A stretch of 64,000 nt of DNA from Candidatus Omnitrophota bacterium. GTDB lineage: Bacteria; Omnitrophota; Omnitrophia; Omnitrophales; Aquincolibacteriaceae. The stretch lies in NCBI GenBank assembly GCA_903856085.1, contig CAIOAT010000024.1, positions 3,180-67,179 on the forward strand, read 5' to 3'. The position numbers and the translations under genes are program-made. This document shows, piece by piece, positions 10,178 through 33,892 of the stretch. The notes below the pieces were generated by a model, which saw nothing but the letters and a program-made list of their open reading frames with translations, did not search any database and was not told the DNA's origin. Positions within the stretch are counted from its first letter, which is position 1. Each line of letters starts with the position of its first letter.

Positions 10178-11839
10178 CTAGGCGGGCTTGTCCTTGTTCG
10201 TGTTTTCCGATGACACTACCTTCTCAGAACCCTTCAACCCCGGAGCGGCATCCGTTGCAGCCGTTTTTTTCTGGGACTGATCGTCTTTTGACTGGTTATT
10301 CTTCCCGTCAACTTTGGCACCCGCAGGCTGTCCCTGCGAATCCACCGTAGTAACTGTTACAAAAAAGAGCGTTTCAACTTTTTGAGTACTTGGATTCGCC
10401 GATGAGGATGGATTTTTCGATCTAAACAATTTACCCACCAACGGAATATCCCCGAAAAATGGAACCTTATCTTCTTTAATACCCGTTTGATCCGTCAACA
10501 AACCGCCGATAGCGATCGTTTGTCCGCTTTGAATCAATACCTGTGTTTTTGCTTTAGTCGTATCAAATCGAGGCGCTTGTATCTGACCGGCACCAAAATC
10601 CTGGTTAAGCCCCACAGAACTCACTTCTGGGCTCAGATCGACTAAAATTTCTTCCGCGGAATTGATATGCGGCGTTACATTCAACACCACTCCCGTATTC
10701 CGATAATTAAAACCTGTGATCACCATGCTCCCCGTCTGCTCATTTCTCTCAAAGCTGGGGATGGGAATCTCCTGGCCGACCTGGATCGTCGCTGTCTGAT
10801 TATTCAAAACAACGACTCGGGGGTTGGAAACCACCTTCGTATTGACCCTTGTTTCCAAGAGACTCAATATCGCAGAAAAACTTGAGAAGTCCAATGTTCC
10901 AAAAGCGAATGACCCGCCGGTTGCCTCTGCTGGCGGCATCGGAAAAGTCCTGTTTTCTCCAGGGTACGGACTTGTCGTGCTAGTAGTTGTAGTCGTGCCT
11001 GAAGTTGTTGCAGATGTCGAAGTGCTCCCAGACAACGCAGGGAAAAAGCTCCGATAATCGCTCGTAGGACCCTGCATAAACGGAAATGTCGTTGGCCTCG
11101 TAGCCCCCTTAGTAAGCCCCCCTACAACATTCCAATCAATACCAAGTTTTTCCGTATTGGAAAGATCCGTCTTCACGATTTTCGAATCAATAAAAGCTTG
11201 GGAGGTAACTTTATCGAGTTTTTTGATCACTTCTCCGATGCGGTAAAGGTTGGTCGGAATATCGGTCACGACGACCATATTGGTGCGTTCCGAGGGCTTC
11301 ACCTTCCCGCGTTCACTCAACATGTCCATGATCGAGGCTTGGATCTCGGTGGCTTTCGAATAATTCAGGATGAAGGTCTTTGTCTCGACAGGTTCAAGCT
11401 TCATTTTGTCACGGGTCGTCACACGGATGATATTGCCGTCCCTCTCATAGACGTAATCGTAGGTCCTCAAGATCACCTCGAGCGCCTTTTCCCAGGGCAC
11501 ATTGTCGAGTCGCACAGTGACAAGACCGGTGACTTCCGGGCCGGTCACAATATTGACATTGCTTTTCAGACTCAGCACGCGCAACACACTCCCGATATCA
11601 GCGTCCTTAAAATCAAGACTGATCGTATCATTCCCGACTACTGGGGCAGAAGGTGCAATCACGACCGGGGCAAGGACGGCCTTAGCGGCAGGTGCGGATG
11701 GCGCGGGCGGCACAGAAGCCTTCTGTGTCACAGCGTTCGGAGTCGGGTCTGCGGCAGAGACAACGCTCGTCACGCCCAAAAGACACAGCACACCCATCAA
11801 AAGAATAAGATTATAGATTGGTCGTTTCATGAAGTTCAC
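10178..11839 (-). CDS. pilQ: Type IV pilus secretin PilQ
   Basis: 553 aa; signal peptide, N-domains, Thr/Ser-rich linker, C-terminal secretin domain (VLIQSGQTIAIGGLLTD ... VPFFGDIPLVGKLF). Confidence 0.8.
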   Translation of the reverse strand: MNFMKRPIYNLILLMGVLCLLGVTSVVSAADPTPNAVTQKASVPPAPSAPAAKAVLAPVVIAPSAPVVGNDTISLDFKDADIGSVLRVLSLKSNVNIVTGPEVTGLVTVRLDNVPWEKALEVILRTYDYVYERDGNIIRVTTRDKMKLEPVETKTFILNYSKATEIQASIMDMLSERGKVKPSERTNMVVVTDIPTNLYRIGEVIKKLDKVTSQAFIDSKIVKTDLSNTEKLGIDWNVVGGLTKGATRPTTFPFMQGPTSDYRSFFPALSGSTSTSATTSGTTTTTSTTSPYPGENRTFPMPPAEATGGSFAFGTLDFSSFSAILSLLETRVNTKVVSNPRVVVLNNQTATIQVGQEIPIPSFERNEQTGSMVITGFNYRNTGVVLNVTPHINSAEEILVDLSPEVSSVGLNQDFGAGQIQAPRFDTTKAKTQVLIQSGQTIAIGGLLTDQTGIKEDKVPFFGDIPLVGKLFRSKNPSSSANPSTQKVETLFFVTVTTVDSQGQPAGAKVDGKNNQSKDDQSQKKTAATDAAPGLKGSEKVVSSENTNKDKPA

Positions 11840-11863
11840 TCGGCCTCCATCATATCATAAAAC

Positions 11864-12229
11864 CTATGTTTTTTCCTCTTTCCTTATCCAAAGCGTCTTT
11901 TCTTCTCCATTCGCCGAGATCACGACATGGTCCCTTAGGATTTTGACGACTTTCGCGTCTCCGACGGCCTCACCCGTCTGATAGGTCTTTCCGTTCAGGA
12001 TGGCCATCGATTGCGCTCCCGGATCATAAATGATGCCCTCGAGGTTGACTCCCAAAGAGGATGCCGTCACCGAAACATCCTCTGCCGTAAGCGGCACGAA
12101 AGGGTCTCGACGTTTACCGGAATCATAAGCGATTTCTTCCGCCCGAAGCGAGCCACACAGCGTCAAAAACAAAAAAAACAAGGCTAGGAACTTTAGAGCT
12201 CCACAATATTTGCCGTCACTTTTTGGCAT
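11864..12229 (-). CDS. pilP: Pilus assembly protein PilP-like
   Basis: 121 aa; signal/lipoprotein N-terminus, DPFVPL motif, beta-rich C-terminus. Position between pilO and pilQ. Confidence 0.5.
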   Translation of the reverse strand: MPKSDGKYCGALKFLALFFLFLTLCGSLRAEEIAYDSGKRRDPFVPLTAEDVSVTASSLGVNLEGIIYDPGAQSMAILNGKTYQTGEAVGDAKVVKILRDHVVISANGEEKTLWIRKEEKT

Positions 12230-12875
12230 GTCCCGCTCCCGTCGCCGACGCGACCTGTGGCGGTGCTTTGAGGATCGCCCAAAGCTTCAGCTCCGCGACA
12301 TGCCGATCCGGCGTTTTTTCCGCCGGCATGATTTCAATGCTCCGAATCCTCAAAAGTTTCCCGTAGGACTCGATACGGCTCGCCAGACTTCCAAGATCAT
12401 GATAACCGCCTTGCACCGTAAATTCATAACCGCTCGGCTGATATTTCAAGTGATACGGTGCTGCAAAAACCGCTTTCTCAGTCAAAGGTTTGGAGGCCAG
12501 CACATCCACGCGCGACTCACTTGCCATTTTCGAAACCCGTCCTAAAAGAAGGCCCATATCCTGGGCTGTAAAAACACGCGCGCGGGTCTTTTCAATGAGC
12601 GAGCCGAATACATTCTGGTCCTCTTCCCAACCCAACCGCTTCTGGTTCAGGGCATTGATCTGGCGGATCTGAGCTTCCATACTTTGGATATCGCGCCGTA
12701 GCAAAGGACGTTCAATCCACGCCGGAATAATCAAAAAAACAACCATCAGAAAAAAAACCACCGCACACGAAAGGACGATCAACCATGTTCTTTTATCGAC
12801 ACTTTTCACGAAGGCTATAACATCGGCAGAGGTCCATTGGTTGAACGGTTTCATGGTTTTTGGGTCACTCCCCAT
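12216..12875 (-). CDS. pilO: Type IV pilus assembly protein PilO
   Basis: 219 aa; single TM, coiled coil, C-terminal ferredoxin-like region. Operon position after pilN. Confidence 0.6.
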   Translation of the reverse strand: MGSDPKTMKPFNQWTSADVIAFVKSVDKRTWLIVLSCAVVFFLMVVFLIIPAWIERPLLRRDIQSMEAQIRQINALNQKRLGWEEDQNVFGSLIEKTRARVFTAQDMGLLLGRVSKMASESRVDVLASKPLTEKAVFAAPYHLKYQPSGYEFTVQGGYHDLGSLASRIESYGKLLRIRSIEIMPAEKTPDRHVAELKLWAILKAPPQVASATGAGHAKK

Positions 12876-13429
12876 TCAAGATTTGCGGCAAAAGCGGTTC
12901 CTGCAATCTTTTCTGAGGATTCCTTGGAAGTCGTCAACGCAACCGAGGTCTGAGGCGGCAATTTTGTTCTCAGTTTCTGGAAATACTCCTCGATCTGTTC
13001 AATGCCCGTCTGTGTTCGGGATGCCAACACCACGCCCTTCAAGGTCAACCGGCATCCCTCACCTTCCCGTTCCGCTTTGAGTTCCGTGAGCCATCCCTTC
13101 GGCGGCAAGAACTCGCTCACCCAGAAAAGCATCTGCGTCATAGATTCCGTATTGAGCACGTTCTTCTCCAGAAAATCTTTTTCACCCTTCATTTCAATTT
13201 CGATCTTGGTCTCCATGGCCTTCAGCTGTGACATGGAGGGATTCAGCTTCACCCATTCCTTTTGCACATTTTTATAAGCTGAGCGAGCCCTGAGATAGTC
13301 CCCATAGAAAAAAAACGTCATAAGAAGAAAAAGCACTCCTGCCAAAAGGGCGAACGGAATATACGGAATACGCGTCGCGGTCGCTTTCCCTTTCCGGAGC
13401 TCCTGGGGCAAAAGGTTGATCTTGATCAT
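12851..13429 (-). CDS. pilN: Type IV pilus assembly protein PilN
   Basis: 192 aa; N-terminal INLLP motif (MIKINLLPQELRK) then TM segment. Confidence 0.7.
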   Translation of the reverse strand: MIKINLLPQELRKGKATATRIPYIPFALLAGVLFLLMTFFFYGDYLRARSAYKNVQKEWVKLNPSMSQLKAMETKIEIEMKGEKDFLEKNVLNTESMTQMLFWVSEFLPPKGWLTELKAEREGEGCRLTLKGVVLASRTQTGIEQIEEYFQKLRTKLPPQTSVALTTSKESSEKIAGTAFAANLEWGVTQKP

Positions 13430-14523
13430 TCGTCGCGAAGCCCCAGACCCAGAGGCACGGGCAAGAGCGACTCATGGGTTTTAAGAAGTTCAGGATCCAC
13501 GTCCGGAGCCCATTTTATCTTTGAAAGAATGTCCATACTCACCACCGGGATCTGCAGCCCTTCGCTCAGCGCCTTCAAAACCACGGGGTGAGACACCCCG
13601 CCGCTAAGAAAAAGCTTTGTGACAGGCCTCGCTTGCCCGGACTGATCATGGTAGTAGTCGAAGGAAACGCGCAGATCCCCGATCAACCCTTCAAGACTTT
13701 CCTTGATCGCTTGCGTCTGATCAAGCGTCAGAGTTTCATTTTTCTCGAAAAGCTTTTCGATCTTTTCGTCTAAAAGATCGGAACGGGTCTTGAGCCGTTT
13801 GTGAAGATCGAAAGTCCCGTAAGAAATATCACGGACAAAACGGGGTTTTCCATCACGGACGATCCCAAGGGTCGAGGTCTCAGTGCCAAGATCTAAAAGG
13901 CCGACATGTCCCGCGAAATCTTCAGGATGGAAATATTCCAATGCGGCCATCACCGAAAGAATGCTGACATCCACCAACGACAAGCGGCATTCCAGATTTC
14001 GAAAAATCTCAAGCGTCGGCTCAAGTTCCTGCCGCTTCACGACAACAAGCATTACTTCCATCTTCTCGCCATCATCGGTTTTGATGCCTTCCTCCACCAC
14101 TCCAAAATCGAGCACTACATCGTTAAGCTCAAAAGGAATATATTGTTCCGCTTCGTATTTCATGGCGCTCCGGAGATCTTCAACCTTCATCTTGGGAAAA
14201 CGGATGAATCGGATCACGACTCCATGCCCCTTGAGAGCCACACGAACTCCATCTTTTCGGAATTTTTTTCCGTCCAAAAACGGCTTGAGAACCAATGAAG
14301 GTTTCTGATCCTTGGGAGCATTCTTAATAATATCGATGCGATGGACAAAAAGGTGGTCAGGTCCTTTTTCAAGTTCCAAAAGGACCGTCTGCATCCGGCC
14401 AAGATCACACACGGTAACCTTGGTAGGGATCGTTTTTTTCTGCAGGAGCTTCGATGAAAATCCTCTAAAAAGGCCGGAAAGCTGTTGACTCAATGGAAGC
14501 CGCTTGCTGGGATCGTTACTCAT
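13426..14523 (-). CDS. pilM: Type IV pilus assembly protein PilM (actin-like ATPase fold)
   Basis: 365 aa; actin/FtsA-like motifs (VCDLG..., LLDLGTETSTLGIV..., LFLSGGVSHP). Precedes pilN. Confidence 0.8.
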   Translation of the reverse strand: MSNDPSKRLPLSQQLSGLFRGFSSKLLQKKTIPTKVTVCDLGRMQTVLLELEKGPDHLFVHRIDIIKNAPKDQKPSLVLKPFLDGKKFRKDGVRVALKGHGVVIRFIRFPKMKVEDLRSAMKYEAEQYIPFELNDVVLDFGVVEEGIKTDDGEKMEVMLVVVKRQELEPTLEIFRNLECRLSLVDVSILSVMAALEYFHPEDFAGHVGLLDLGTETSTLGIVRDGKPRFVRDISYGTFDLHKRLKTRSDLLDEKIEKLFEKNETLTLDQTQAIKESLEGLIGDLRVSFDYYHDQSGQARPVTKLFLSGGVSHPVVLKALSEGLQIPVVSMDILSKIKWAPDVDPELLKTHESLLPVPLGLGLRDE

Positions 14524-14626
14524 AGGTGAGAGATTAGCAGAAAATCTTCAAAAAAAAAGGCAAAAAAATCTACGTTGATCGTGGAAACAAATCGGGTTCG
14601 AAAACACCTTTTTCTATTTCTCATCG

Positions 14627-15100
14627 TCATCCTGTAATCGGAGTTCCAGCCGAACAGCCATCGGCAGCAGCCACAGGAATGGTCGCTGTCCCATCAACTG
14701 TAGAGCCCGTGACAACACCGGTCTGGTCGATACAATACGTATTGTTTGCCGCATTCGCGACAGGTGTGGCTAACAAAGAAAACGTACCGTCACCCACAAG
14801 ATAGCTCAAGACGAACCCATGCTTGGTTCCGCCCTCGACCCAAGAAGGGTCCAGATACGGAGGAGACACCCCTGTCAAAGCTAGGATATTGGCCGGAAAG
14901 GCCGGAGGATTCTGCACCGCACGATAACTTTCGCAAGCATGGCTGAATGTTTTCAGTTCTGACTTGACGGCACCTTCATTAGCATTGACCCTCGCCCGCA
15001 GGAGATTGGGAATGGCGATAGCGGCCAAAATCCCAATGACCGCAACTGCGATCATGATCTCAACAAGAGTAAACCCCCGTCGGGTACGCTCAAGAAACAT
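14627..15100 (-). CDS. Type IV pilin (minor pilin or second PilA paralog)
   Basis: Prepilin leader MFLERTRRG | FTLVEIMIAVAVIGILAAIAIPNL (G-1, F+1, E+5). Start placed at the Met of the leader; the ORF-track extension to 15142 is not needed. Confidence 0.8.
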   Translation of the reverse strand: MFLERTRRGFTLVEIMIAVAVIGILAAIAIPNLLRARVNANEGAVKSELKTFSHACESYRAVQNPPAFPANILALTGVSPPYLDPSWVEGGTKHGFVLSYLVGDGTFSLLATPVANAANNTYCIDQTGVVTGSTVDGTATIPVAAADGCSAGTPITG

Positions 15101-15217
15101 GGCATCTCCCATTTTAAAAGCCTGCGCACATTCAATTCTCAAGACAATTTACGGCAAGAATTGCGATTCCCCGCAGCATTTTCAGCAAGGTAGAATGAAG
15201 CAGTCGCTGCGATCCCC

Positions 15218-15260
15218 TAAAATAAAAAACCCACCCTGCCGCTCCCGGCAGGGTGGGTCA
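15218..15260 (-). terminator. Rho-independent terminator after the major pilin gene
   Basis: Perfect 13-bp stem ACCCACCCTGCCG / CGGCAGGGTGGGT with a 4-nt loop. On the minus strand it is followed by a TTTTTTATTTT tract. Confidence 0.7.
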
Positions 15261-15287
15261 GAAAAAACTTAAAAAACACTGAATCAA

Positions 15288-15743
15288 CTAGCCAGCAATC
15301 GCAGTACCACCACCAGCACAGCCTGTCGCCGGACCCGTCAGAGCGGTTGCCTTCATCACAATGACGCCGGTCTGGTCAACACAATAATAATTGACCGCAG
15401 CGTTTGCAATCGGGGTTGCGAGCGCCGCGAACGTCTGCGCTGCACCGGTAAGCACTATGTTGTAACCATGCTTCGCTGCCTTAAACGTGGCATCCACATA
15501 CGGAGGAGTCGCATCAGCCAAAGCATCGATGTCCGCAGGATAGGTTGGCGTAACCTGCGCCGCACGATAGCTTTCGGCAGCAGAGCTAAGCGTTCTCAGA
15601 TCCGACTTAATCGCACCTTCGTTGGCGTTCATACGAGCACGCATAAGATTGGGAATGGCAATAGCAGCCAAAAGCCCAATGATAGCAACGACGATCATGA
15701 TCTCAACAAGCGTGAAACCCCTTTTATTCAATTGGATAAACAT
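15288..15743 (-). CDS. pilA: Type IVa major pilin PilA
   Basis: 151 aa; leader MFIQLNKRG | FTLVEIMIVVAIIGLLAAIAIPNL. Perfect RBS AGGAGG 6 nt upstream. Own upstream intergenic region (190 nt) and downstream terminator. Confidence 0.85.
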   Translation of the reverse strand: MFIQLNKRGFTLVEIMIVVAIIGLLAAIAIPNLMRARMNANEGAIKSDLRTLSSAAESYRAAQVTPTYPADIDALADATPPYVDATFKAAKHGYNIVLTGAAQTFAALATPIANAAVNYYCVDQTGVIVMKATALTGPATGCAGGGTAIAG

Positions 15744-15933
15744 GTTATTCCTCCTGTTTCTATGTTTGCTTCTGCCTACTATTAGCTTAAACTACCTTAA
15801 ATGATACGACAATCCCAACAAGAACTAAACTAGTTTTTTTGATATCCAAGTTACACATCCTATAACTTTAACAAGCATTCATGTGAACCCTTAGACAGTT
15901 TTCCACAGGATTGTCCAGCCAAGGACTGCTTCC

Positions 15934-17172
15934 TTATTTGATCGCCTGGGTAAGCGTAAGGATGGGAAGAAACATGGCTATCACAATGCCGCCGATCACA
16001 ACCCCAAGAAAAGCAACGATGAGCGGCTCAATTAAGGAAGTCAGCCCGGAAACCGCGGTATCCACCTGGGTATCATAAAAGTCCGCGATCTTTGTGAGCA
16101 TCTCTTCCAATTCTCCGGTCTCCTCCCCAATCGCGATCATACGAACGACCATCGAGGGAAAGATTTCGTTTTTTTCAAGCGGGCCGGCGATGCTTTCCCC
16201 GCGTTTGACAGAGCCCATAAGATCCGTGATGACTTTTTCGATGCGAGCATTCCCTGAAGTTCGAGAAACGATCTCCAAAGCCGCAAGGATCGCCACACCG
16301 CTACGCAACAACGTGGAAAGCGTGCGCGCAAATTTACTGATCGCTACCTTCAAAATAATCGGACCAAAAATGGGCATGCGAAGAGTAAAAGAATCCCAGG
16401 GCAAACGGCCCAACGGAGAGCTGATGAATTTCCGGAACAGAAAAACACCTCCGCCCAGGACAGCGAGAATCCACCACCAGTTGACCGCAAGATAATTGCT
16501 GATAGTAATCAGGATCTGCGTCGGCATGGGCAGCTTCGCCCCCAGGCCTTCAAAGATCGTCGCGAACTTCGGGATCACAAAGGCCAGCATGAAGAACGTG
16601 ATCATGAAAGCCATGATCGAAACGGCCGTCGGATACATCACCGCAGATTTAACCTTTTTTTGAAGCGCGCTGGATTTTTCAAAATATTGGGCCACGCGGT
16701 CCAGGATCTCTTGCAACTTCCCGCTCATCTCACCCGCGCGCACCATGTGAATAAAAAGCGCCGAAAAAACCTTTTGGTGCGCCTGCATGGCCTCAGAAAA
16801 ACTTTTACCAGTCTGCACGTCACTATGCATCCTCCAAAGAATCTTTCGAAATTTCTCCTTATCCACCTGCCCGGCGAGGATGTCTAGGGCCTGGATCAAA
16901 GGGATCCCCGCCGCGACAAGCGTAGCCATCTGCCTTGAAAAAATCACGAGGTCGTCCAGTTTGATGCCTCCGGATTTTCCCTGCCGAATCTTGGGGACTG
17001 TCCCCTTCTGAACACTCAGCATAGAAGATCCTTTTTTGACCTGCTCCACCCGAACAACCAGATAGTCCTGCGCCTTCAGCTGACGAACAAGATCTTGAGC
17101 ATCCTGGGCGTCCTGAACGCCCTTCAGATCTTTTCCCGACTTATCCTTGACCCAATATTCGAACGATGGCAT
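15934..17172 (-). CDS. pilC: Type IV pilus platform protein PilC (GspF family)
   Basis: 412 aa; two GspF-family repeats with three TM segments. Confidence 0.85.
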   Translation of the reverse strand: MPSFEYWVKDKSGKDLKGVQDAQDAQDLVRQLKAQDYLVVRVEQVKKGSSMLSVQKGTVPKIRQGKSGGIKLDDLVIFSRQMATLVAAGIPLIQALDILAGQVDKEKFRKILWRMHSDVQTGKSFSEAMQAHQKVFSALFIHMVRAGEMSGKLQEILDRVAQYFEKSSALQKKVKSAVMYPTAVSIMAFMITFFMLAFVIPKFATIFEGLGAKLPMPTQILITISNYLAVNWWWILAVLGGGVFLFRKFISSPLGRLPWDSFTLRMPIFGPIILKVAISKFARTLSTLLRSGVAILAALEIVSRTSGNARIEKVITDLMGSVKRGESIAGPLEKNEIFPSMVVRMIAIGEETGELEEMLTKIADFYDTQVDTAVSGLTSLIEPLIVAFLGVVIGGIVIAMFLPILTLTQAIK

Positions 17173-17177
17173 ATATT

Positions 17178-18872
17178 TTACTCCTGACTTGAAACGCGAA
17201 GCACTTCCTCAAGCGTGGTCACCCCAGACTTGAAGAGTCCTAGGGCGTTCTCGAAGAGGGTTTCCATACCCTTTTCAACGGCAACCTGGTGAATAACATT
17301 ACTCGATTTTTTTTGGATCACAAGCTCTCGGATATCCGGATCCACGAGCAGCACCTCACTCGCACCGGTCCTTCCGAAATATCCAGTCATGTTGCACTTG
17401 ATACAACCCTTCCCACGGAAGGGCGCGATCTTATCCAATTCCGATTTAGAAAGCTTACAACGAAGGAGCACATCCGCCGGAATGGTGGCCGGCGACCGAC
17501 AGCTCGGGCAGATTTTTCTGAGTAGACGCTGCGCCCCGACGCATACCACTGAGGACGCGATCAAAAAAGGCTCCACGCCCATATCCATAAGACGCGTCAT
17601 CGCGCCGGCGGCGCTGTTCGTATGAAGCGTGCTAAACACCAGATGCCCGGTAAGCGCGGCCTTCACCGCGATATCCGCAGTCTCCGAGTCGCGGATCTCC
17701 CCCACCAACACGATGTCCGGACTTTGTCGAAGCAAGGCACGAAGACCACTCGCGAACGTCAGCCCGATCTCTGGCTGCACCTGAGTCTGAGTAATCCCTT
17801 CGACTTGATATTCGATAGGATCCTCCACGGTCATTAAATTCTTTTGCGGCGTGTTCAGTGAATTCAGGATCGAATAAAGCGTCGTGGATTTTCCGCTACC
17901 TGTTGGCCCGGTCACCAGGATCATCCCATAAGGCTTCTTGACCGCTTCGGCAAGAGCGCGGGTCGGCTTCTCCGTAAAGCCGAGCTTATCAAGTCCCGCC
18001 CGGATCCCGCTTCGGTCCAAGACGCGCAGCACCAGCTTCTCGCCGAAATAGGTCGGCAACACAGAGACACGAAAATCAATCTGCCGGTCCTTGAGCAGCA
18101 ACCGGAACCGCCCATCCTGGGGCAGACGTTTTTCAGTAATATCCAAGAGAGAAATGATCTTGGTACGCGCCACGAGAGCCGGATAAAGCTCCAATGTATG
18201 GGAGAACGATTCTTTTAAAGCTCCATCGACACGGTACCGGATACGAAATTCTTTTTCATAAGGCTCAAAGTGAATATCGGAAGCGCGGGCTTTCAGCGCT
18301 TTTTCAAGAATAAAATTGACCATCTTGATGACCGGCGCGTCATCCACGCCGACCTGTACGACGGAGGACGCCTCCTTCTCATCTTCATTCACAAGTTCCA
18401 GGCTATCGGCATCCTTCTCAGAGATAAATTCAGAAAAATTTTTACTTTCTGCGTAATAGTCGTCCACGGCGGCAGCAATCCGGGCGGGAGTGGCCAACAC
18501 AAGGTTCACGTCACATCCTGTCAGATGCTTGATATCATCGAAGGTCCGTAATTTAAACGGATCGCTTGTAGCCACCGTCACAAGCTTTCCGATGCGCCCC
18601 ACCGGAAAAGCCTGATGCTGTTCGATGAATTTCCGGGGAAGCATCCGCAGGACTTCATTGTCGAACTGCATCCCGTGAAGGTTCAGCGTGGGGATCTCAA
18701 GCTGAGCGCTCAAAAAATCCATAACCTCTTCTTCCGGAAGGATCTTTTCTTCGAGAATAATTTTTATAGTGCTTTCATTGCGTTTCTGAGCGACCTGGCC
18801 CAAGCGATCACACTCCTCTTCAGAAAGCCCCAGTTTTTTCACCCACGTCCGAACGATCTTTTTGTCGATCAT
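17178..18872 (-). CDS. pilB: Type IV pilus assembly ATPase PilB/GspE family (paralog 2)
   Basis: 564 aa; Walker A GPTGSGKSTTLYS, Asp box, Walker B and His box, tetracysteine motif CPSC...CIKC, N-terminal GSPII domain. Length indicates PilB-type, not PilT. Confidence 0.85.
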   Translation of the reverse strand: MIDKKIVRTWVKKLGLSEEECDRLGQVAQKRNESTIKIILEEKILPEEEVMDFLSAQLEIPTLNLHGMQFDNEVLRMLPRKFIEQHQAFPVGRIGKLVTVATSDPFKLRTFDDIKHLTGCDVNLVLATPARIAAAVDDYYAESKNFSEFISEKDADSLELVNEDEKEASSVVQVGVDDAPVIKMVNFILEKALKARASDIHFEPYEKEFRIRYRVDGALKESFSHTLELYPALVARTKIISLLDITEKRLPQDGRFRLLLKDRQIDFRVSVLPTYFGEKLVLRVLDRSGIRAGLDKLGFTEKPTRALAEAVKKPYGMILVTGPTGSGKSTTLYSILNSLNTPQKNLMTVEDPIEYQVEGITQTQVQPEIGLTFASGLRALLRQSPDIVLVGEIRDSETADIAVKAALTGHLVFSTLHTNSAAGAMTRLMDMGVEPFLIASSVVCVGAQRLLRKICPSCRSPATIPADVLLRCKLSKSELDKIAPFRGKGCIKCNMTGYFGRTGASEVLLVDPDIRELVIQKKSSNVIHQVAVEKGMETLFENALGLFKSGVTTLEEVLRVSSQE

Positions 18873-20638
18873 GGGGCACCGCCTCCGGGCTTCGCGCCGA
18901 CATCCGCGATCGTGACGCGAAAAACCTCATCGAGCGATGTTTCACCCGCCAGCGCCTTTTGGATCGCTGATTCTCGCAAGGTGTTCATCCCGTGCTCCCG
19001 GGCCCTCTCTTTAATGAGATCCGCGGACGCTCCTTGCATGATCATATCCAGAATATCCGGTTTCATTTCGAGGATCTCAGTGATCACGCTCCTGCCCTGA
19101 TAGCCCAGCTGGCGACACTGCGAACAGCCCTTGGCTTTCCAAAGCTGTATCTTTTTTTTCGGGTCTAAATTCAGGAATTTATACATATCAGGTTCGAGAT
19201 CGTATGCGACGCGACAACGCGGGCAGAGACGACGCACCAGCCGCTGGGCCGAGATCATTAGAACGGTCGACGCGATCAGGAACGGCTCAAGTCCAAGATT
19301 CGCCATGCGGGTCACGGAACTCACCGCGTCGTTGGTGTGGAGCGTGCTCAGAACAAGGTGGCCCGTCAGCGCGGCCTTCACGGCGATATCGAGCGTTTCC
19401 GCATCACGGATCTCTCCGATCAAAATAATGTCGGGATCCTGGCGCAAGATCGAACGTAGAGCCGCGGGAAATGTCAGCCCTATGGATTCGCGGACATTGA
19501 CCTGATTGATCCCGGACATCTGATACTCCACAGGATCCTCAACCGTTGTAATATTTACCTGCGGGGAATCCAAGTATTTGAGGACCGAATAAAGCGTAGT
19601 TGTTTTTCCGCTTCCGGTCGGTCCGGTCACAAGGATCATCCCATGCGGCTTCTTGGCCGAAGCCCGTATCACGCTCTGCTCCGTCTCTGTAAAACCGAGC
19701 TTTTGGATATCATGCGACTGAGCCCCAGTATCCAAAATGCGCAAGCAGACTTTCTCGCCGAAGCTGGACGGCAAGATAGAAACGCGCATGTCCACTTCCC
19801 GACCCTGCGTCCTGACTTTGAAACGGCCATCCTGGGGAACGCGGTGTTCCGCGATATTGAGCTGGCTCATGATCTTAACGCGGGAAACGATGGCGGCGCC
19901 AAAACTCTTTTGCGGTTTTACGATCTCCTCAAGGATTCCGTCAATGCGCATACGGATCCGGACAAAACCTTCCCAGGGTTCAATAAAAATATCACTCGCC
20001 CGGCGACGCACCCCCTCCACGAGCACCATATTGACAAGTTTCACGACCGGCGCCTGATTGGCCTGTTCCATGAGATCCGCGACCTTCTGCTGCTTATCCA
20101 GGGTCGCCTCACTTTCAACCATATTGGCAAGACTTACGAGATCTTCGGCACCCTCATCCAAAACAGGCTCTTCCGAGACACTGACCTCTCCCTGATAGGA
20201 TTTCTGTATGTATTCCTTGAGCTGAGAGTATTCCGCCACCGAAGTCCTGATGCGTTTTCCGGTAATCGCCTGAAGTTCATCCAAAACTTTTATGTTGGTG
20301 GGATTCGCCACCGCAACCGTCAAAGTCTTTTCAAGTAAGGATATCGGGAGGCACCCATAAGCCTCTGCGGTTTTCTTGGAAACGAGCTTTAGAACTTCTT
20401 TGTCAATGATCAGCATTTTGAGACTGACGAGACGATAACCGTATTCCTCACAAAGAACGCTCACGAGTTTTTTTTCGTCGCATTTCCCGGCCTGTTGAAG
20501 TATGTCTAGAAAATGCAGTTTGTTGGAGCTCTTGACCTGTTCCTGGAGTGCTTGTTGGAGATCGGCAGAGCTGACGACTCCCGCCCGCAGAAGAGCTTCT
20601 TTAAGATCCGGCAATGACGTTCGCATGGGTTCTGTCAT
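18869..20638 (-). CDS. pilB: Type IV pilus assembly ATPase PilB/GspE family (paralog 1)
   Basis: 589 aa; Walker A GPTGSGKTTTLYS, tetracysteine CPRC...CSQC, N-terminal GSPII-like domain. 4-nt overlap with paralog 2. Confidence 0.85.
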   Translation of the reverse strand: MTEPMRTSLPDLKEALLRAGVVSSADLQQALQEQVKSSNKLHFLDILQQAGKCDEKKLVSVLCEEYGYRLVSLKMLIIDKEVLKLVSKKTAEAYGCLPISLLEKTLTVAVANPTNIKVLDELQAITGKRIRTSVAEYSQLKEYIQKSYQGEVSVSEEPVLDEGAEDLVSLANMVESEATLDKQQKVADLMEQANQAPVVKLVNMVLVEGVRRRASDIFIEPWEGFVRIRMRIDGILEEIVKPQKSFGAAIVSRVKIMSQLNIAEHRVPQDGRFKVRTQGREVDMRVSILPSSFGEKVCLRILDTGAQSHDIQKLGFTETEQSVIRASAKKPHGMILVTGPTGSGKTTTLYSVLKYLDSPQVNITTVEDPVEYQMSGINQVNVRESIGLTFPAALRSILRQDPDIILIGEIRDAETLDIAVKAALTGHLVLSTLHTNDAVSSVTRMANLGLEPFLIASTVLMISAQRLVRRLCPRCRVAYDLEPDMYKFLNLDPKKKIQLWKAKGCSQCRQLGYQGRSVITEILEMKPDILDMIMQGASADLIKERAREHGMNTLRESAIQKALAGETSLDEVFRVTIADVGAKPGGGAP

Positions 20639-20688: not shown

Positions 20689-20793
20689 TTCCATCAGGGC
20701 GCCTGATTTTTCTATTAAAAAAAATGCCGGGAAATCAGCGCAGTCCTGATGGCCCCTTGGAGAAATAAACAAATCCATCAGGGCGCCTCGTGA
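20689..20793. promoter_or_regulatory. Repeated palindromic motif upstream of the pilB start
   Basis: TCCATCAGGGCGCCT occurs twice (20689-20706 and 20773-20793). The first copy contains the palindrome ATCAGG-GCG-CCTGAT. A third related palindrome ATCAG-N7-CTGAT lies at 20733-20751. Confidence 0.3.
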
Positions 20794-21221
20794 TAGATAA
20801 AATAGATTGCATTCAGGATCTCAGAGATCCGGGAAAGAAACACCTGGGGAATGCGGCCCGTCAGCGTCCGGATCTTTTCAACAACTGCGTCCCCCAAGGG
20901 ATCCGCCACCGCGACATAAACCTTCTTCGCATCACAATCGAACGCCACCACCATATTCTCGTGGCAGAAATCCGCATTCAGCATACTAGCCATGTCGGGA
21001 TTGATCGCATAGTTCTTGAGCGGAAGATACGGGATTTTGAACTGTTTGCCGAGAGCACCAATCAAATGCTCCTCGTCCACGAACTTCTTCTCAATGAGGA
21101 TCCTTCCGATCAAGCCGCCTTTTTCCTTCTGATAGGCAAGGGCTTCCTCCAGATGAGCTTTGGATAAAAGCCCATCTTCGATCAAGATCTCTCCGATTTT
21201 TCTCTTTATTTTTGGAATCAT
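20778..21221 (-). CDS. Standalone MshEN-like (T2SS-E N-terminal) domain protein, predicted c-di-GMP receptor
   Basis: 147 aa; tandem 24-residue motifs RKIGEILIEDGLLSKAHLEEALAYQ and LIGRILIEKKFVDEEHLIGALGKQ separated by 5 residues. They fit the c-di-GMP-binding signature RLGxxLLxxG(I/F)(L/V)xxxxLxxxLxxQ. Confidence 0.55.
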   Translation of the reverse strand: MIPKIKRKIGEILIEDGLLSKAHLEEALAYQKEKGGLIGRILIEKKFVDEEHLIGALGKQFKIPYLPLKNYAINPDMASMLNADFCHENMVVAFDCDAKKVYVAVADPLGDAVVEKIRTLTGRIPQVFLSRISEILNAIYFIYHEAP

Positions 21222-21319
21222 TTCGTTCCTTGTTTAATTTCCTTATCTATAAGTAACGGCACATGTTGCAAAGAATTTTGCGTTTTTTGTCCTCCGTGGC
21301 CAAACCATAAATCAGAAGG

Positions 21320-26919: not shown

Positions 26920-27642
26920 TCATTTCATTTCAAGTTCACGAATGGCGGTCACAACCACTGAAGGATTTTGTGGCTTCCCAAGATAAACGGAAGCCCCCGC
27001 GGCAAGACTCTTTTCCCGAAAATCCATCCCGGAATAGGTATAAACGATCAGCGGAACCGTCGTGCAACTCCGTATATCCTTGATCAGTACCTCCGCCTCG
27101 ACAGCATGCTGCTGATATTCCATGGCAATATAATCAGCAGGCTGTTTCGCCCAATATTCCTTAAAACCGCTCATGCCCTTGATAAAAAAAACCTGAAAGC
27201 GCTCATCACGCAATTCTTTGGCGACCGCCTGCGCCAGCGGGCTTCCCTCGGAATCCGCGAGATAGACAGTCTTTCTCTTTTTCAAAAGCGCCTTCCTGAC
27301 TTCGCCAAGAACAAGAGACATTTCGAACGGTTTATTAACAAACCCGTCCACAGCAATCCCTTCCATCAGACTCTCAAGCTCGCCGCGACCCGTCATGACG
27401 ATCACCGGCATCCGGGGTTTTCCATGTTTTGTAGAAACGGCGCGCAGAAAATCGAAGCCGTCTTTTCCCGGCATCCGAATATCCAGCATCACCAGATTGA
27501 CAGACCCCTGCTCTAACGCCTTGAGAGCTTTATCCACACTCGGCGCCGTCAGGACCACGTAACCTTCTTCCTCCAAATGGAGCTTCAGAAGATCTGCGAT
27601 CGCTCGTTCATCATCGACAATCAGTATTTTTTCTCCGCTCAT
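26920..27642 (-). CDS. Response regulator with N-terminal receiver and a second degenerate receiver-like domain, no DNA-binding output
   Basis: 240 aa; REC motifs (ILIVDDE ..., LVMLDIRMPGKDG, K near residue 104). The second half is receiver-like but lacks the canonical acidic pocket. Confidence 0.7.
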   Translation of the reverse strand: MSGEKILIVDDERAIADLLKLHLEEEGYVVLTAPSVDKALKALEQGSVNLVMLDIRMPGKDGFDFLRAVSTKHGKPRMPVIVMTGRGELESLMEGIAVDGFVNKPFEMSLVLGEVRKALLKKRKTVYLADSEGSPLAQAVAKELRDERFQVFFIKGMSGFKEYWAKQPADYIAMEYQQHAVEAEVLIKDIRSCTTVPLIVYTYSGMDFREKSLAAGASVYLGKPQNPSVVVTAIRELEMK

Positions 27643-27657
27643 AATACCTCCCTGGGA

Positions 27658-30408
27658 TTAACGACCCAACACGGACCAAACTTTCACGGAAAGTTGCCCG
27701 TGACTGAAGGGTTTTTGAAGGAAATCCGCGCCTTCCACGTCCGCAATCATTTGTTCTGAATACCCGGACATAAAGATCACTTTCAATTCAGGGAACATTT
27801 CCCGGACTCGGAGCACAAGATCTTTGCCATTCATTTTCGGCATGGTCAAATCGGTGAGCAAAAGATCAAACTTCCTCCCCGGATCTTCCGCAAGCATTCC
27901 AAGCGCCTCATCCCCTCCGCGCGCCGCGCGGACATCGTAGCCTCTTTCGCGAAGAACCTGCAGAGCGAACTCTCGAACCTGGTTTTCATCTTCGACGAGA
28001 AGGATCTTACCCCGCCCCTGCGGCAGTACTTCCAAAACCGATCTTTCCTCAAGGCCGGGCTCCGCCTTAGCTTTGGGAAGATAAATCCTAAAAGTAGTCC
28101 CTTTCTCAAGCTGACTTTCAAAGGAAATCGCACCACCTGCCTGCTCCACGATTCCATAAACGATTGAAAGCCCCAACCCTGTGTTCATCCCTTTTTTCTT
28201 AGTGGTAAAGAAAGGTTCAAAAATACGCTTCCTTAAAGCGGGATCGATCCCAACGCCAGAATCTTTGACCGTTATCCTGATAAACTCACCTTCTCTTTTT
28301 CGAGAAGGTCTGAGTTCTTCCTGGATATCTTCCATACGCACAAGATCCGTCGTAACCGTCAACACCCCGCCTTTCGGCATCGACTCCCGCGCATTCACAA
28401 AAAGATTCAAAAACACCTGCTCCATCTGCCCAGGGTCCATTTTCACGTAGCCAACATCCGCCGCGTGGTCCACCTTCAACTCGACATCGTCCCCCAGCAA
28501 TCGGGCGATCATACTCTTCATTTTCACGGTCGCTTCTGAGACCTTGATCAGCTGCGGCTTTGGAGCCTCTTTCCGGCTAAGATTGAGCAATTGCCTGACG
28601 ATCGTCGCCGCACAATCGCCCGCATCCCGTATCTGGTGTACTTTGTCAAAATAAGGATCATCCGGCTTCATCTTTGTCATGAGATAACCGCTATAGCCAT
28701 TGATCACAGTCAACATATTGTTAAAATCATGTGCAATCCCGCCCGCCAACCGACCCACCGCCTCCATTCTGAGTGAATGCCGGAGTTGCTCTTCGAGCTG
28801 GAGCCGGTAGGTGATGTCCTCTTTGACCGCGACGAAGTACGCGATCTTACCCTCATCATCACGGATCGGGGCAATGTGAGCCAATTCCGTGTATATCTCA
28901 CCGTTCTTCTTTTTATTGGAAAACTGTCCTTGCCAATCTTTCCCCTGGAGAAGCGTGTCCCAAAGATCTCTATAAAACTCCACCGGCTGTTCCCCGCTCT
29001 TTAAGATCCTTGGATTCTGGCCCAAAGCCTCCGCGGAAGAATAACCCGTGACCTCAGAAAATTTCTGGTTCACGTATTCGATCTTGCCGTCCTTATCGGT
29101 GATCACGATACAGCTCGGACTTTGCTCCACAGCCTCAGACAGTTGCCGGATCTTACTTTCTATTTTCTTAAGCTCGGTCAAATCTCTCCAGAGACAATGG
29201 AGAATATTCTTGCCATGAACAACCACGGGTGTGAGGGAAACTTCCACCGGAAAATCCTCCCCATCGGCTTTTCTGTGAACCCACTCAAATCGGTGAAACC
29301 CCTGCTCAAAAGCAAGCTTCATCATCTCATTGGCCTTAACAAAAGAACTCTGCCCGTCGGGTTGGACAGGAGGCGACAGCTCCGCGGGATGCTTCATCAA
29401 AAATTCTGCCCGGGTGGAATATCCGAGCATGTGAGCTGTGGCCTCGTTGCAATCCACAAAATTCTCACCGTCAATAAGAAGGATGGCATCTCGGGAAACA
29501 TAAAGAACGTCCATGAATCGCTTTTCACTCTCCTGCAATGCTGCCTCCGCGCGCTTACGCTCGGTGATATCTTGGGAGATCCCTGTGAGCCGCACAGCCT
29601 TGTTGTTTACGTCTCGCTGGATATGCCCCCGGGATAAAATAACGCGCGATTCTCCATCCTGCCGGGTGATTCGCAACTCCAACTCATAATCTTCTCCCGT
29701 CTGCTCGGATTTCTTGATCGCAGCCGTCATTGTTTTCCAGTCCTCCGGATGCGTCCTCTTTTCGCATTCCTGAAAAGTTGGCACTGCCCCCTCAGGATCC
29801 ATGCCATAGATACGAAACATTTCATCGGAAAAGGAGACCTGTTCGGTTTGAAGATCAAGCACCCAACTCCCCACATGAGAAACGCGCTGCGCGTCCTTAA
29901 GCTGAATCTCGCTTGCCGTGATTGCTTCCTCGGCACGCTTTCGAAGGGTCATGTCCATAATAACCCCAACAATCCCTTGCACTTCCCCGGACGCCCCGGT
30001 AAAAGTTGCCTTATGAAACATGATGCTTCTGGACTCACCCGCCGCATTCGTGATCGCTGCCTCATAGACTTGAATGCCCGGAAGAGCAAAAAGATTCGCA
30101 TCTTTCTCAATATAAATTTTGGCGATCTCGGGCGAAAAAAGCTCCTCAACTTTTTTCCCAATAAGCTCTTTTTGCGATATTCCAAAAAACGCTTCGAAGG
30201 CCCTGTTGCAGCCGATATAAACCCCCGAGACGTCCTTATAGAAAACCGGAACGGGGATAGAATCCATGAGTTTCTGTAAGAACAGGGATTTCTCCAAGCT
30301 CACCGCCTCGATCAATTTGCGCTCTTGAATTTCCCTGTCCAGATTTTCGATGGAAGTAGTTTTATTCTTAATATTTTGAGCCATCGCTTCAAAATCTCTG
30401 GCAAGCAA
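27658..30408 (-). CDS. Hybrid sensor histidine kinase: HAMP remnant, multiple PAS, HisKA, HATPase_c, C-terminal receiver
   Basis: 916 aa; at least four PAS-like modules, H-box AHDFNNMLTVINGY, G-boxes GVGIDPALRKRIFEPFFTTKKKGMNTGLGLSIV, C-terminal REC (ILLVEDE ... LLTDLTMPKMNGKDL). The ORF-track start 30408 is a TTG; the first in-frame ATG is at 30384. Confidence 0.85.
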   Translation of the reverse strand: MLARDFEAMAQNIKNKTTSIENLDREIQERKLIEAVSLEKSLFLQKLMDSIPVPVFYKDVSGVYIGCNRAFEAFFGISQKELIGKKVEELFSPEIAKIYIEKDANLFALPGIQVYEAAITNAAGESRSIMFHKATFTGASGEVQGIVGVIMDMTLRKRAEEAITASEIQLKDAQRVSHVGSWVLDLQTEQVSFSDEMFRIYGMDPEGAVPTFQECEKRTHPEDWKTMTAAIKKSEQTGEDYELELRITRQDGESRVILSRGHIQRDVNNKAVRLTGISQDITERKRAEAALQESEKRFMDVLYVSRDAILLIDGENFVDCNEATAHMLGYSTRAEFLMKHPAELSPPVQPDGQSSFVKANEMMKLAFEQGFHRFEWVHRKADGEDFPVEVSLTPVVVHGKNILHCLWRDLTELKKIESKIRQLSEAVEQSPSCIVITDKDGKIEYVNQKFSEVTGYSSAEALGQNPRILKSGEQPVEFYRDLWDTLLQGKDWQGQFSNKKKNGEIYTELAHIAPIRDDEGKIAYFVAVKEDITYRLQLEEQLRHSLRMEAVGRLAGGIAHDFNNMLTVINGYSGYLMTKMKPDDPYFDKVHQIRDAGDCAATIVRQLLNLSRKEAPKPQLIKVSEATVKMKSMIARLLGDDVELKVDHAADVGYVKMDPGQMEQVFLNLFVNARESMPKGGVLTVTTDLVRMEDIQEELRPSRKREGEFIRITVKDSGVGIDPALRKRIFEPFFTTKKKGMNTGLGLSIVYGIVEQAGGAISFESQLEKGTTFRIYLPKAKAEPGLEERSVLEVLPQGRGKILLVEDENQVREFALQVLRERGYDVRAARGGDEALGMLAEDPGRKFDLLLTDLTMPKMNGKDLVLRVREMFPELKVIFMSGYSEQMIADVEGADFLQKPFSHGQLSVKVWSVLGR

Positions 30409-33600: not shown

Positions 33601-33892
33601 AGAAAAAACAAGGGTGACAAACAACATTCTCTTGCGATATCCCCGCTTCATGGGCGGCTACGAATGGTTGGGTGATCTTTTAGAAAAAAGCGGCCGGTCG
33701 GAAGAGGCCCTCGCGGTCTACCAGAAAATGGCCGGCATTTTCCCCAACGAATCCACGCCCTTCATCAATCTCGCACGCGCCAGCGACAATCTGGGACGTC
33801 CTCAGGACATGAAAAAATACCTGGCAAAAGCCGCCCGTCTCAATCCCGCCCTGGCCGATAATCCGGCCATCCAAAAGATTCTGCGCTCTTAA
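30608..33892 (+). CDS. Fused polytopic membrane domain / spermidine-synthase-like aminopropyltransferase fold / C-terminal TPR repeats
   Basis: 1094 aa; ~14 TM helices in the N-terminal half, SpeE-like Rossmann signature VCVIGLGSGSTAAAV...DVVELE...ISEPSNPW, C-terminal TPR repeats. ORF-track start 30608 is TTG; a likelier ATG is at 30722 (MQRLILTCFFISGACGLVYEVAWLRV). Confidence 0.7.
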   Translation: MGFMKQTPASQKMQHAASSPREFPRSSWLTPKQIPAKSMQRLILTCFFISGACGLVYEVAWLRVMGLIFGNTTFATSTVLAGYMAGLGLGALWWGKRIDKGGNPVRIYANLEVGIGVFALLTPLIWILIDLLTIGFYRFVSPAFFSALLFKFLLAFTALLIPTFLMGATLPVLSKYFVTKDDEIAKQVGLLYGLNTLGAVLGVLFSGFIALQTFGVWQTVYLTGFFNLVIFCLCRRFFASPEANPPVINKKIAPLKNPVSPSPSAAEQSSFSPAVTWILLAAFAISGAVSMMYEIAWTRVLAMSLGSSVYAFSLMLATFLLGISIGSYLFSRFSHFFRTNLQTFAILQLLTALFGLGGINVFNDMPYYFVRIFAASHNSDFLLQVGRFFLCSIVMLPPTLMIGAMFSCFIHILRRSRPLGSEIGEAYFANTIGTILGSVLTGFCIIPLVGIQHTLLIAAGLNATIGALAFFLQKERLNWKRYSILALTVLLLAFGILTIRPWNQGFISSELAVKPAPAIGMTKNQLLNSMKEQELVFYKEGLSATVAVKRLRDDLSMSVNGKIDASNKDTFTQFLLGHLPMALHPNPKNVCVIGLGSGSTAAAVASYPVEHIDVVELEKEVVKAASYFKELNRNVLADPRLKIHINDGRNFLLLDPTRYDVIISEPSNPWMAGVANLFSIEHYRTMKKRLAPGGIVCQWLHAYSMSPEDLRMIIRTFSEVYPNISLWTSYYPDLMLIGSNEPLTLDMKNFERAFKIPTVREDLEPNGIRSPMGFLSNAWLFDPALRLLAQDAKINSDNHPYLEFSAPRNLYKNTLLENFTLLNTLRKFEEFPKVKDLEPPQEKNVLFYNALTRGYLAKRFNANAEWSLSKADKIDPANLETALLSGIFYYQIGAKDKAKEILTQAVAINPSSAETQEYFGSALQDLGQIPGAIEAFQKASDLAPENIPYLVTLANALLKADQNLRALQCFNKALAARPDDFDSWVKKAMLVMNMGTLEEKTRVTNNILLRYPRFMGGYEWLGDLLEKSGRSEEALAVYQKMAGIFPNESTPFINLARASDNLGRPQDMKKYLAKAARLNPALADNPAIQKILRS

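Follow-up and report, generated by a model that had tools for sequence, protein, structure and literature searches.

A 147-residue protein encoded in a 64,000-nucleotide (nt) stretch of a Candidatus Omnitrophota genome (assembly GCA_903856085.1, contig CAIOAT010000024.1, positions 3,180 to 67,179; this whole stretch is called the window below) is probably a cyclic di-GMP (c-di-GMP) receptor that serves a type IVa pilus assembly motor in trans. The protein, hereafter SA for stand-alone MshEN protein, consists of a single MshEN domain, of the kind that motor ATPases of pili usually bear within their own chain, and is encoded directly ahead of two tandem assembly ATPases, PilB1 and PilB2. From its sequence, its genomic context and a structure model, we regard it as a likely receptor of the arginine-free K/L type, like the GSPII-B domain of Thermus PilF, which would be co-expressed with the motor as the first gene of the pil operon. 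A sequence-only reading of this DNA had suggested c-di-GMP control of the motor in trans, and our analysis supports its interpretation.

In the mechanism that we propose, one c-di-GMP molecule would be bound, probably tightly, in the N-terminal four-helix bundle of SA, as the sequence and the model suggest. The contacts would be made by two Gly-X backbone amides, two glutamines through their side chains and two hydrophobic triads, and K8 and L37 would stack on the guanines. SA would join the assembly motor non-covalently, most probably at PilB1 or its ring of N1 domains (N1D), to which operon linkage and natural gene fusions point, and it may also associate with the platform. The motor would in this way be given an input for c-di-GMP, or a docking surface that depends on c-di-GMP, which both PilBs lost in cis. 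The trio of SA, PilB1 and PilB2 would mirror the multi-GSPII N-terminus of PilF, where binding GSPII lies next to non-binding GSPII, here on separate polypeptides.

SA and its predicted c-di-GMP site

The SA gene and its parts are as follows (VcMshE, Vibrio cholerae MshE).

20778..21221, minus strand: SA, stand-alone MshEN/GSPII-domain protein of 147 residues (ATG-to-stop open reading frame, ORF, with profile matches)
21129..21200, minus strand: c-di-GMP motif I, K8-Q31, KIGEILIEDGLLSKAHLEEALAYQ, aligned to VcMshE R9-Q32
21042..21113, minus strand: c-di-GMP motif II, L37-Q60, LIGRILIEKKFVDEEHLIGALGKQ, aligned to VcMshE R38-Q61
20802..21041, minus strand: MshEN_C subdomain (alpha/beta, T2SSE_N1-like), residues 61-140, matched by PF05157; D107 aligns to VcMshE D108

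The ORF lies exactly where the sequence-only reading had placed it, on the minus strand, which that reading left unstated. NF053729 (the 53-residue NCBIfam model 'c-di-GMP_motif') matches residues 8-60 with 60.9 bits (expectation value, E, 7.5e-17; cutoff 38), and PF05157 (Pfam MshEN) matches residues 61-140 with 47.7 bits (cutoff 23.1). No further domain beyond MshEN was found by the Pfam and NCBIfam scans. The T2SSE ATPase domain, with its Walker A/B, Asp and His boxes, is absent, which places SA outside the PilB/MshE/GspE ATPases. SA should not be named PilB, the name under which the Joint Genome Institute (JGI) lists many of the family members ('type IV pilus assembly protein PilB'). It is thus confirmed that SA is one complete MshEN/GSPII domain and nothing else, much as had been claimed from the sequence alone. 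Similarly, no Pfam or NCBIfam match to PilZ or to a degenerate EAL/GGDEF domain was found in SA or in the scanned cluster genes, none of which is of the FimX/PilZ type.

The AlphaFold2 (AF2) model of SA, with a predicted local distance difference test score (pLDDT) of 81.4, is a four-helix bundle plus an alpha/beta subdomain, with helices at residues 9-15, 21-34, 38-44 and 50-61, and then three strands with flanking helices. The best Foldseek matches in the PDB were VcMshE (5HTL, E 3.5e-10) and PilF GSPII-B with c-di-GMP (8PDK, E 7.9e-10), and further matches included PilF GSPII-A (9G1W; template modelling score, TM, 0.83), the N-domain of Xanthomonas citri PilB and XpsEN.

The residues of VcMshE that contact c-di-GMP are known (Wang et al., 2016; PMC5013675). 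The backbone amides of the glycine at position 3 of each motif read O6/N7 of guanine, and the VcMshEN variants G11L and G40I show poor binding, if any; ribose and phosphate are contacted by the glutamine that ends each motif, at position 24 (PMC5013675). By phmmer, SA residues 2-109 align gap-free to VcMshE residues 3-110 (5HTL), and the two motifs of SA, separated by the five-residue spacer KEKGG (residues 32-36), make up 53 residues in ungapped register with VcMshE R9-Q61. G11 and G40 of VcMshE correspond to G10 and G39 of SA, Q32 and Q61 to Q31 and Q60, the triad L25/L29/L39 to L24/L28/I38, the triad L10/L54/L58 to I9/L53/L57, and D108 to D107. The isoleucine in place of leucine at position 2 of both motifs is conservative and within the relaxed pattern of Wang. 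Three site positions are changed from VcMshE, namely R9 to K8, R38 to L37 and G47 to K46. Motif II departs from the 2016 consensus in having L37 instead of Arg at position 1 and K46 instead of Gly at position 10, and both positions also fall outside the relaxed pattern. K8 and L37 conform to the extended 2024 consensus, (R/K/L)LG..., and are identical to K167 and L196 of Thermus PilF GSPII-B. This domain binds c-di-GMP with a dissociation constant (KD) of 6 nM, and binding became 25-fold weaker in K167R and 4-fold weaker in L196R (PMC11731258). From these results, Neissner et al. (2024; PMC11731258) extended the consensus and proposed that very high affinity can be predicted from a hydrophobic residue at position 1. 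At position 10, SA has glycine in motif I (G17) and K46 in motif II; this is the residue of a helix-helix turn outside the ligand contacts, and the AF2 model still makes the turn between alpha3 and alpha4.

The two strings that the sequence-only reading had quoted as tandem 24-residue motifs, RKIGEILIEDGLLSKAHLEEALAYQ (residues 7-31) and LIGRILIEKKFVDEEHLIGALGKQ (residues 37-60), are both present, with the correction that motif I proper starts at K8 rather than R7 and that motif II is non-canonical by the 2016 rule. Its expected likeness to Vibrio MshE is borne out by the glycines, the glutamines, the hydrophobic triads and D107, and fails at both arginines, which are replaced (K8, L37). In addition, the N-terminus of SA (IPKIKRK) is basic, like K5/R7/K8 of VcMshE, and has P3 at the Ncap position and K6 at N3 without an Ncap box, as read from the sequence only, helix stability and subdomain contacts being beyond a model. 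This hint of an unblocked helix alpha-1 is encouraging, not decisive, and the predicted binding site of SA looks intact.

SA belongs to a well-conserved family. The first database search gave 165 clusters, and the relatives among the best 120 of them were 67-100% identical to SA and nearly all 147 residues long, every named one coming from Candidatus Omnitrophota. The family occurs in 19 GTDB species representatives, with records titled Omnitrophota/Omnitrophica (12) or 'uncultured bacterium' (7). A profile search of 1.84 billion representatives returned 22,803 MshEN matches; 31 of the best 150 had at most 200 residues, and these were mostly stand-alone proteins of 145-190 residues. A distant subfamily (P0237, 33% identical to SA) has 1,648 members at E <= 1e-5, and its relatives measure 136-168 residues in all but one of the 120 listed, the named ones being all Omnitrophota. 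The ratio of nonsynonymous to synonymous substitution rates (dN/dS) of SA was 0.07-0.16 against nine orthologous loci. SA is a real gene, and a pseudogene or gene-calling artefact is excluded.

For synteny we compared the window with 34 related loci, ranging from 86% down to 33% identity to SA, and every MshEN domain from the loci was aligned to one profile (32 stand-alone, 30 PilB1 and 27 PilB2). All 32 stand-alone proteins, even at 33% identity, have G10, G39, Q31, Q60, L24 and L28, and G17 is likewise invariant (32/32). At position 8 they carry K or R, with a single P, and at position 37 L or M, again with one P and in no case Arg. Position 46 varies more (K in 15, G in 8, N in 4, R in 3, S and H in one each). 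In a broad family alignment, 10 of the 14 invariant or near-invariant columns fall inside the 53-residue motif. The MshEN_C half of SA is unusually conserved in the close family. A metal (Zn) site at C86, H87, C96 and H144 was also considered and rejected: the close family (66-88% identity) shares all four residues without exception, but among more distant stand-alone members P0121 has N87/G96 and P0124 has R87/G96/K144. From the alignment, a conserved metal site at these residues is unlikely, and a lineage-specific one is conceivable.

The PilB motors and their linkage to SA

The two motor genes lie downstream of SA on the same strand.

18869..20638, minus strand: PilB1, type IVa pilus assembly ATPase of 589 residues with a degenerate MshEN N-domain (T2SSE 464 bits, TIGR02538 618 bits)
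17178..18872, minus strand: PilB2, paralogous assembly ATPase of 564 residues, N-terminal motif essentially lost (domain scans, motif reading)

PilB1 and PilB2 are 43% identical, and Walker A, Walker B/Glu, the His box and two CxxC (the tetracysteine Zn motif) are intact in both. The sequence-only reading was right to call their N-terminal motifs degenerate: the string that it gave, DLKEALLRAGVVSSADLQQALQEQ, is residues 11-34 of the 589-residue PilB1, and both PilBs lack the position-3 glycines. NF053729 reaches 27 bits on PilB1, under its cutoff of 38, and the 564-residue PilB2 is absent from its matches at E <= 0.01. Glycine at position 3 of either motif is found in none of the 30 PilB1 and none of the 27 PilB2 domains; the residue equivalent to Q60 is mostly Glu in PilB1, and motif I is largely gone in PilB2. 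By this comparison of motif residues, the loss of the site in cis is shown for both PilBs. The N-domains of PilB1 and PilB2 still match PF05157 despite the loss of the position-3 glycine in 57 of 57, and the Gly/Gln contact residues are therefore not needed for the fold. Their retention in SA would reflect selection for something else, most simply ligand binding. The earlier description of the SA domain as split off from the motor holds in that SA is a separate polypeptide, and is imprecise in that the PilBs keep a degenerate MshEN fold of their own; SA is better seen as an additional GSPII module, comparable to that in Thermus PilF, than as a detached one. The tandem PilB pair is kept in every related locus whose contig reaches far enough, and no PilT-type retraction ATPase was found in the pilus cluster. 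In one locus (L006, 6765..8537) PilB1 was called as two pieces (313 + 262 residues), probably owing to a frameshift, an assembly error or a pseudogene.

The order SA, PilB1, PilB2 was found in every locus with a long enough contig, and contigs that go on continue with PilC, pilin and PilM. The upstream neighbours vary: L005 has an insertion of STT3, L007 and L031 lack LigT and the glycosylase, and L030 carries glycosyltransferases. The distances from the SA stop to the PilB1 start are listed below.

Window: 139 nt
L001: 88 nt
L004: 55 nt
L003: 17 nt
L034: 9 nt
L009: 5 nt
L005, L007 and L031: 2 nt
L032: -8 nt (overlap)

A terminator or attenuator in the 139-nt spacer of the window was tried and rejected, as the spacer folds no better than shuffled sequences (z -1.9, 8/200) and is 2-17 nt in many relatives. 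The spacer holds the second copy of a 14-nt direct repeat, GGCGCCCTGATGGA, found at 20774..20787 over the SA stop codon and at 20690..20703, 84 nt downstream (minus strand).

Moreover, SA is joined to PilB1 by nature in three clusters only (P0156, P0403 and P0404; 754-767 residues), of which P0404 is named as Candidatus Omnitrophota. These proteins consist of an SA-like MshEN, a low-complexity linker, a degenerate MshEN and the ATPase. P0156 (765 residues; L030, 9001..11298) is the best PilB1 match among the profile hits (44% over residues 16-580). Its first MshEN has both Gly and both Gln and is followed by a Gly/Asn/Lys-rich linker of about 50 residues, and its second is degenerate, without the position-3 Gly and without the terminal Gln of motif II. 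The P0156 gene takes the position of SA and PilB1, and PilB2 (570 residues) and PilC follow it in L030, the sole fused contig that was read. The fused proteins nest among hundreds of unfused Omnitrophota PilB1 of about 574 residues (58-66% identity), and the nearest unfused relative, P0405, has a 160-residue SA gene 9 nt upstream. As a Rosetta-stone relation, these fusions point to PilB1 as the functional partner of SA. The suggestion of control in trans is strengthened by them and by the tight linkage that persists at 33% identity, the binding and the partner being predictions from sequence. In the first domain of the fused proteins, position 2 of motif I is Thr (RTG), and helix alpha-4 of motif II contains an insertion.

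Alternative explanations and known systems

Several points weigh against SA as the c-di-GMP receptor of the pilus motor. Even a perfect motif is insufficient for binding, as in GSPII-A, which is blocked by an Ncap-stabilised helix alpha-1 and inter-subdomain contacts (PMC12002112). The SA model superposes best on this non-binding GSPII-A (TM 0.83 vs 0.68 for 5HTL), and K46 replaces the turn glycine (VcMshE G47), 24 of the 32 family members having K, N, R, S or H there. The 139-nt spacer between SA and PilB1 is longer than in the relatives, the genes upstream share the strand of SA and may read through into it, and the synteny of close relatives is partly mere shared ancestry. In addition, GGDEF, EAL, HD-GYP and PilZ were not found in the 64-kb window (regular expressions on all 35 large ORFs; Pfam on 23 of them, both giant ORFs included).

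Some of these features would suit a structural accessory that needs no ligand, a 'landing pad' GSPII that docks the PilB hexamer to PilM/PilC or recruits factors, with the motif conserved only as the core of the four-helix bundle. Such a landing pad was proposed for GSPII-A, which has a near-consensus motif and does not bind c-di-GMP (PMC12002112), and the subdomain orientation in the AF2 model nearest to GSPII-A, the off-consensus K46 at the turn glycine and the unusually conserved MshEN_C half within the close family are in line with it. However, the invariant residues of SA are the ligand contacts (position-3 Gly and position-24 Gln of both motifs), and the contact positions are dispensable for the fold, being lost in 57 of 57 PilB N-domains that still match PF05157. 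SA also shows no Ncap box in its sequence, its N-terminus is basic as in VcMshE, and its NF053729 score lies 23 bits over the cutoff; we find a landing pad unlikely. SA might instead bind c-di-GMP with an output other than the pilus motor, as a general buffer or an adaptor for transcription, secretion or giant surface proteins. There are stand-alone or otherwise fused MshEN with non-pilus roles (PA3740, NfrB, EpsG, FrgA), and a very-high-affinity receptor would be mostly saturated, as discussed for GSPII-B. This explanation seems quite unlikely to us, given that the stop of SA and the start of PilB1 are 2-9 nt apart or overlap in divergent lineages (distances of translational coupling), that the linkage stays while the upstream neighbours change, and that three independent protein clusters join SA covalently to PilB1.

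A c-di-GMP-gated competitor or selector, in which free MshEN would vie with the N1D of PilB for docking to PilM/PilC and so inhibit assembly or pick a PilB paralog, fits the presence of two catalytically intact tandem PilBs in a cluster without PilT. N1D-type domains of T2SS (type II secretion) and T4P (type IV pilus) ATPases bind platform or adaptor proteins, with structural matches in XpsEN, EpsE-N:EpsL and X. citri PilB-N:PilZ. The fusion to PilB1 through a flexible linker suits a partner better than a competitor, though, and we think such a role quite unlikely. Finally, SA might be an artefact or a decaying remnant, either the N-terminal piece of a truncated third pilB or a part of PilB1 set apart by a wrongly called start or a frameshift, as the JGI name could suggest and as the truncated MshEN-only pilB fragment of Paenibacillus thiaminolyticus exemplifies. 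This is effectively refuted by the steady length (about 147-160 residues) in at least 1,648 proteins, the dN/dS of 0.07-0.16, and the stop codon kept in the 32 tabulated stand-alone copies, with a complete N-domain of its own in the downstream PilB1.

Returning to SA as a trans-acting receptor of the motor, there is a small chance that it acts as a freely diffusing subunit, binds c-di-GMP with nanomolar affinity and licenses the pilus motor or chooses between the PilB paralogs. If this were true, MshEN/GSPII would signal via a ligand-dependent protein-protein interface, not intramolecular allostery, and pilus deployment in ultra-small, probably predatory or epibiotic bacteria would be coupled to c-di-GMP from another source, such as the GGDEF domains of giant surface proteins. 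GGDEF domains in giant proteins, with PilZ genes adjacent, were reported for Omnitrophota (bioRxiv 10.1101/2023.11.21.568195).

Among known systems, PilF of Thermus thermophilus (8PDK/8PKZ; PMC11731258) shares with SA the fold and the arginine-free motif of its GSPII-B (LLGRILV in PilF, LIGRILI in SA), and it is the best PDB sequence match of SA (E 8.6e-32 summed over the GSPII repeats). PilF carries a binding GSPII beside the non-binding GSPII-A covalently on a T4P assembly ATPase, whereas SA is a separate polypeptide of 147 residues; motif II of SA has the canonical 24 residues with Lys for the turn Gly, whereas that of GSPII-B keeps the Gly and is one residue shorter. The family prototype, MshEN of V. 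cholerae (5HTL; PMC5013675), controls a type IV pilus and agrees with SA in all hydrophobic triads, in the Gly-X amide position and the Gln of each motif, in D108 and in a basic patch at the N-terminus, but it forms one chain with its ATPase and does its sensing in cis. In the FimX-PilZ-PilB system of X. citri and Pseudomonas (PMC8389850; 7LKM/7LKO), a PilB with a non-binding MshEN-like N-domain gets the c-di-GMP signal in trans from proteins docked there; the receptor in that case is a degenerate EAL domain bridged by PilZ, whereas the receptor proposed here is an MshEN in a cluster without a PilZ or EAL gene. The (MshEN)2-T2SSE ATPases (Cthe_1107; Wang et al., 2016, Supplementary Table 4) and the fusions P0156, P0403 and P0404 have a binding-type MshEN, a second MshEN and the ATPase in the same order as SA plus PilB1. 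All their modules are in one chain, whereas the first module is a separate gene product in the window. A small non-ATPase MshEN-type protein is PA3740 of Pseudomonas aeruginosa, a listed c-di-GMP binder linked to swarming motility. It is not known to lie beside pilB. In Wang's table, a highly diverged N1 domain (T2SSE_N1) makes up its C-terminal half, and it is likened to SA by description.

MshEN binding of c-di-GMP, control of type IV pili, multi-GSPII ATPases, PA3740 and trans delivery via FimX-PilZ-PilB are established already, and our results overturn none of this. A stand-alone full MshEN encoded with, and seemingly serving, PilBs of decayed site is described neither in Wang's architecture table nor in the 2024 review of PilB cofactors, nor among the papers listed by full-text searches on MshEN, PA3740 or Omnitrophota, and the SA family has so far been annotated as 'hypothetical' or, wrongly, 'PilB'. 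Our analysis corrects this for at least 1,648 family members. The 2024 review calls the contribution of c-di-GMP at the N-terminal MshEN/N1D 'poorly understood', the ATPase rate of Clostridium PilB2 being unchanged by ligand. A separate small soluble sensor, motors with dead sites and rare fused relatives as controls make up a naturally dissected system, which should be a clean tool for the MshEN/N1D mechanism. With its K/L motif, SA should also allow an independent check on the predictor of very high affinity proposed in 2024, a hydrophobic position 1. For Omnitrophota, a phylum without cultured model organisms in which pili are thought to matter for contact with host or prey, SA would be the first concrete link from c-di-GMP to the pilus.

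The pilus cluster and its surroundings

The genes downstream of PilB2 are listed below.

15934..17172, minus strand: PilC platform protein (T2SSF 217.8 bits; NF052607 413 bits)
15288..15743, minus strand: type IV pilin, probably the major pilin (N_methyl motif)
14627..15142, minus strand: second type IV pilin (N_methyl motif)
13426..14523, minus strand: PilM (PilM_2 98.7 bits)
12851..13429, minus strand: PilN-like (position, synteny with L001, L003 and L005)
12216..12875, minus strand: PilO-like (position and synteny; weak Pfam matches to PilO in L001, L003 and L005)
11864..12229, minus strand: small gene in the PilP position (position, synteny with L001, L003 and L005)
10178..11839, minus strand: PilQ secretin (Secretin, Secretin_N, STN)

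Together with the PilBs, this is a full type IVa pilus cluster (10178..20638), in which only position and synteny identify PilN, PilO and PilP. The first pilin gene is directly followed by a strong terminator-like hairpin (15228..15259, minus strand) with 14 pairs, including 10 G-C, and a T run, which is typical of a highly expressed major pilin. A search of the pil cluster for a c-di-GMP riboswitch or another known RNA with Rfam gave one sub-threshold small RNA match only (BTnc201, E 0.042, far below gathering), which lies on this pilin terminator and is probably due to chance.

Upstream of SA on the same strand are housekeeping genes for an HhH-GPD glycosylase, LigT, CinA, PgsA/PgpA and a MiaB-like radical-SAM enzyme. 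The gap preceding SA is always 72-281 nt across the loci (98 nt in the window), and in the window it contains one conserved block.

21241..21279, minus strand: non-coding block of about 39 nt, AAAATTCTTTGCAAC.TGTGCCGTTACTTATAGATAAG, about 20 nt upstream of the SA start codon

This block is near-invariant in 10 loci, and the surrounding intergenic DNA has diverged. Its position and conservation suggest that it is a probable promoter or operator of the pil operon, and it may be a promoter plus operator because it is too conserved for a bare promoter. A generic sigma-70 scan gave no site in the 98-nt gap, and no Rfam family matches the block. A sigma-54 promoter within it was rejected, the GG-to-GC spacing being wrong and the orientation reversed. 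The placement of SA as first gene of the pilus operon, made in the sequence-only reading, is plausible in view of the 98-nt gap and the block, and is unproven, the sigma-70 scan having reported no site. A first cistron SA also fits the tight spacing between SA and PilB1 as against the 72-281 nt upstream gap with the conserved block.

Other genes of the window lie further upstream. About 6 kb upstream of the pilus operon (26920..30408, minus strand) a hybrid sensor kinase of 916 residues, with multiple PAS domains, HisKA/HATPase and REC, is followed by a 240-residue double-REC protein; the pair could be a regulatory input, and no output domain was found in it. A giant ORF of at least 6,840 residues (43414..63936, minus strand) probably runs past the window end. 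Its Pfam matches are only APH phosphotransferase, FHA, GNAT and Ham1, without GGDEF, and it resembles the Omnitrophota giant genes of the bioRxiv report cited above (10.1101/2023.11.21.568195). Another large ORF of 2,320 residues (34393..41355, minus strand) has C-terminal GH94 supersandwich and catalytic domains, of the glycan phosphorylase or glucan synthase type, behind some 1,500 N-terminal residues without a Pfam match. On the plus strand, 30608..33892 encodes a fusion of 1,094 residues in which an MFS-like membrane domain is joined to a spermidine-synthase-like domain and, at the C-terminus, to TPR repeats.

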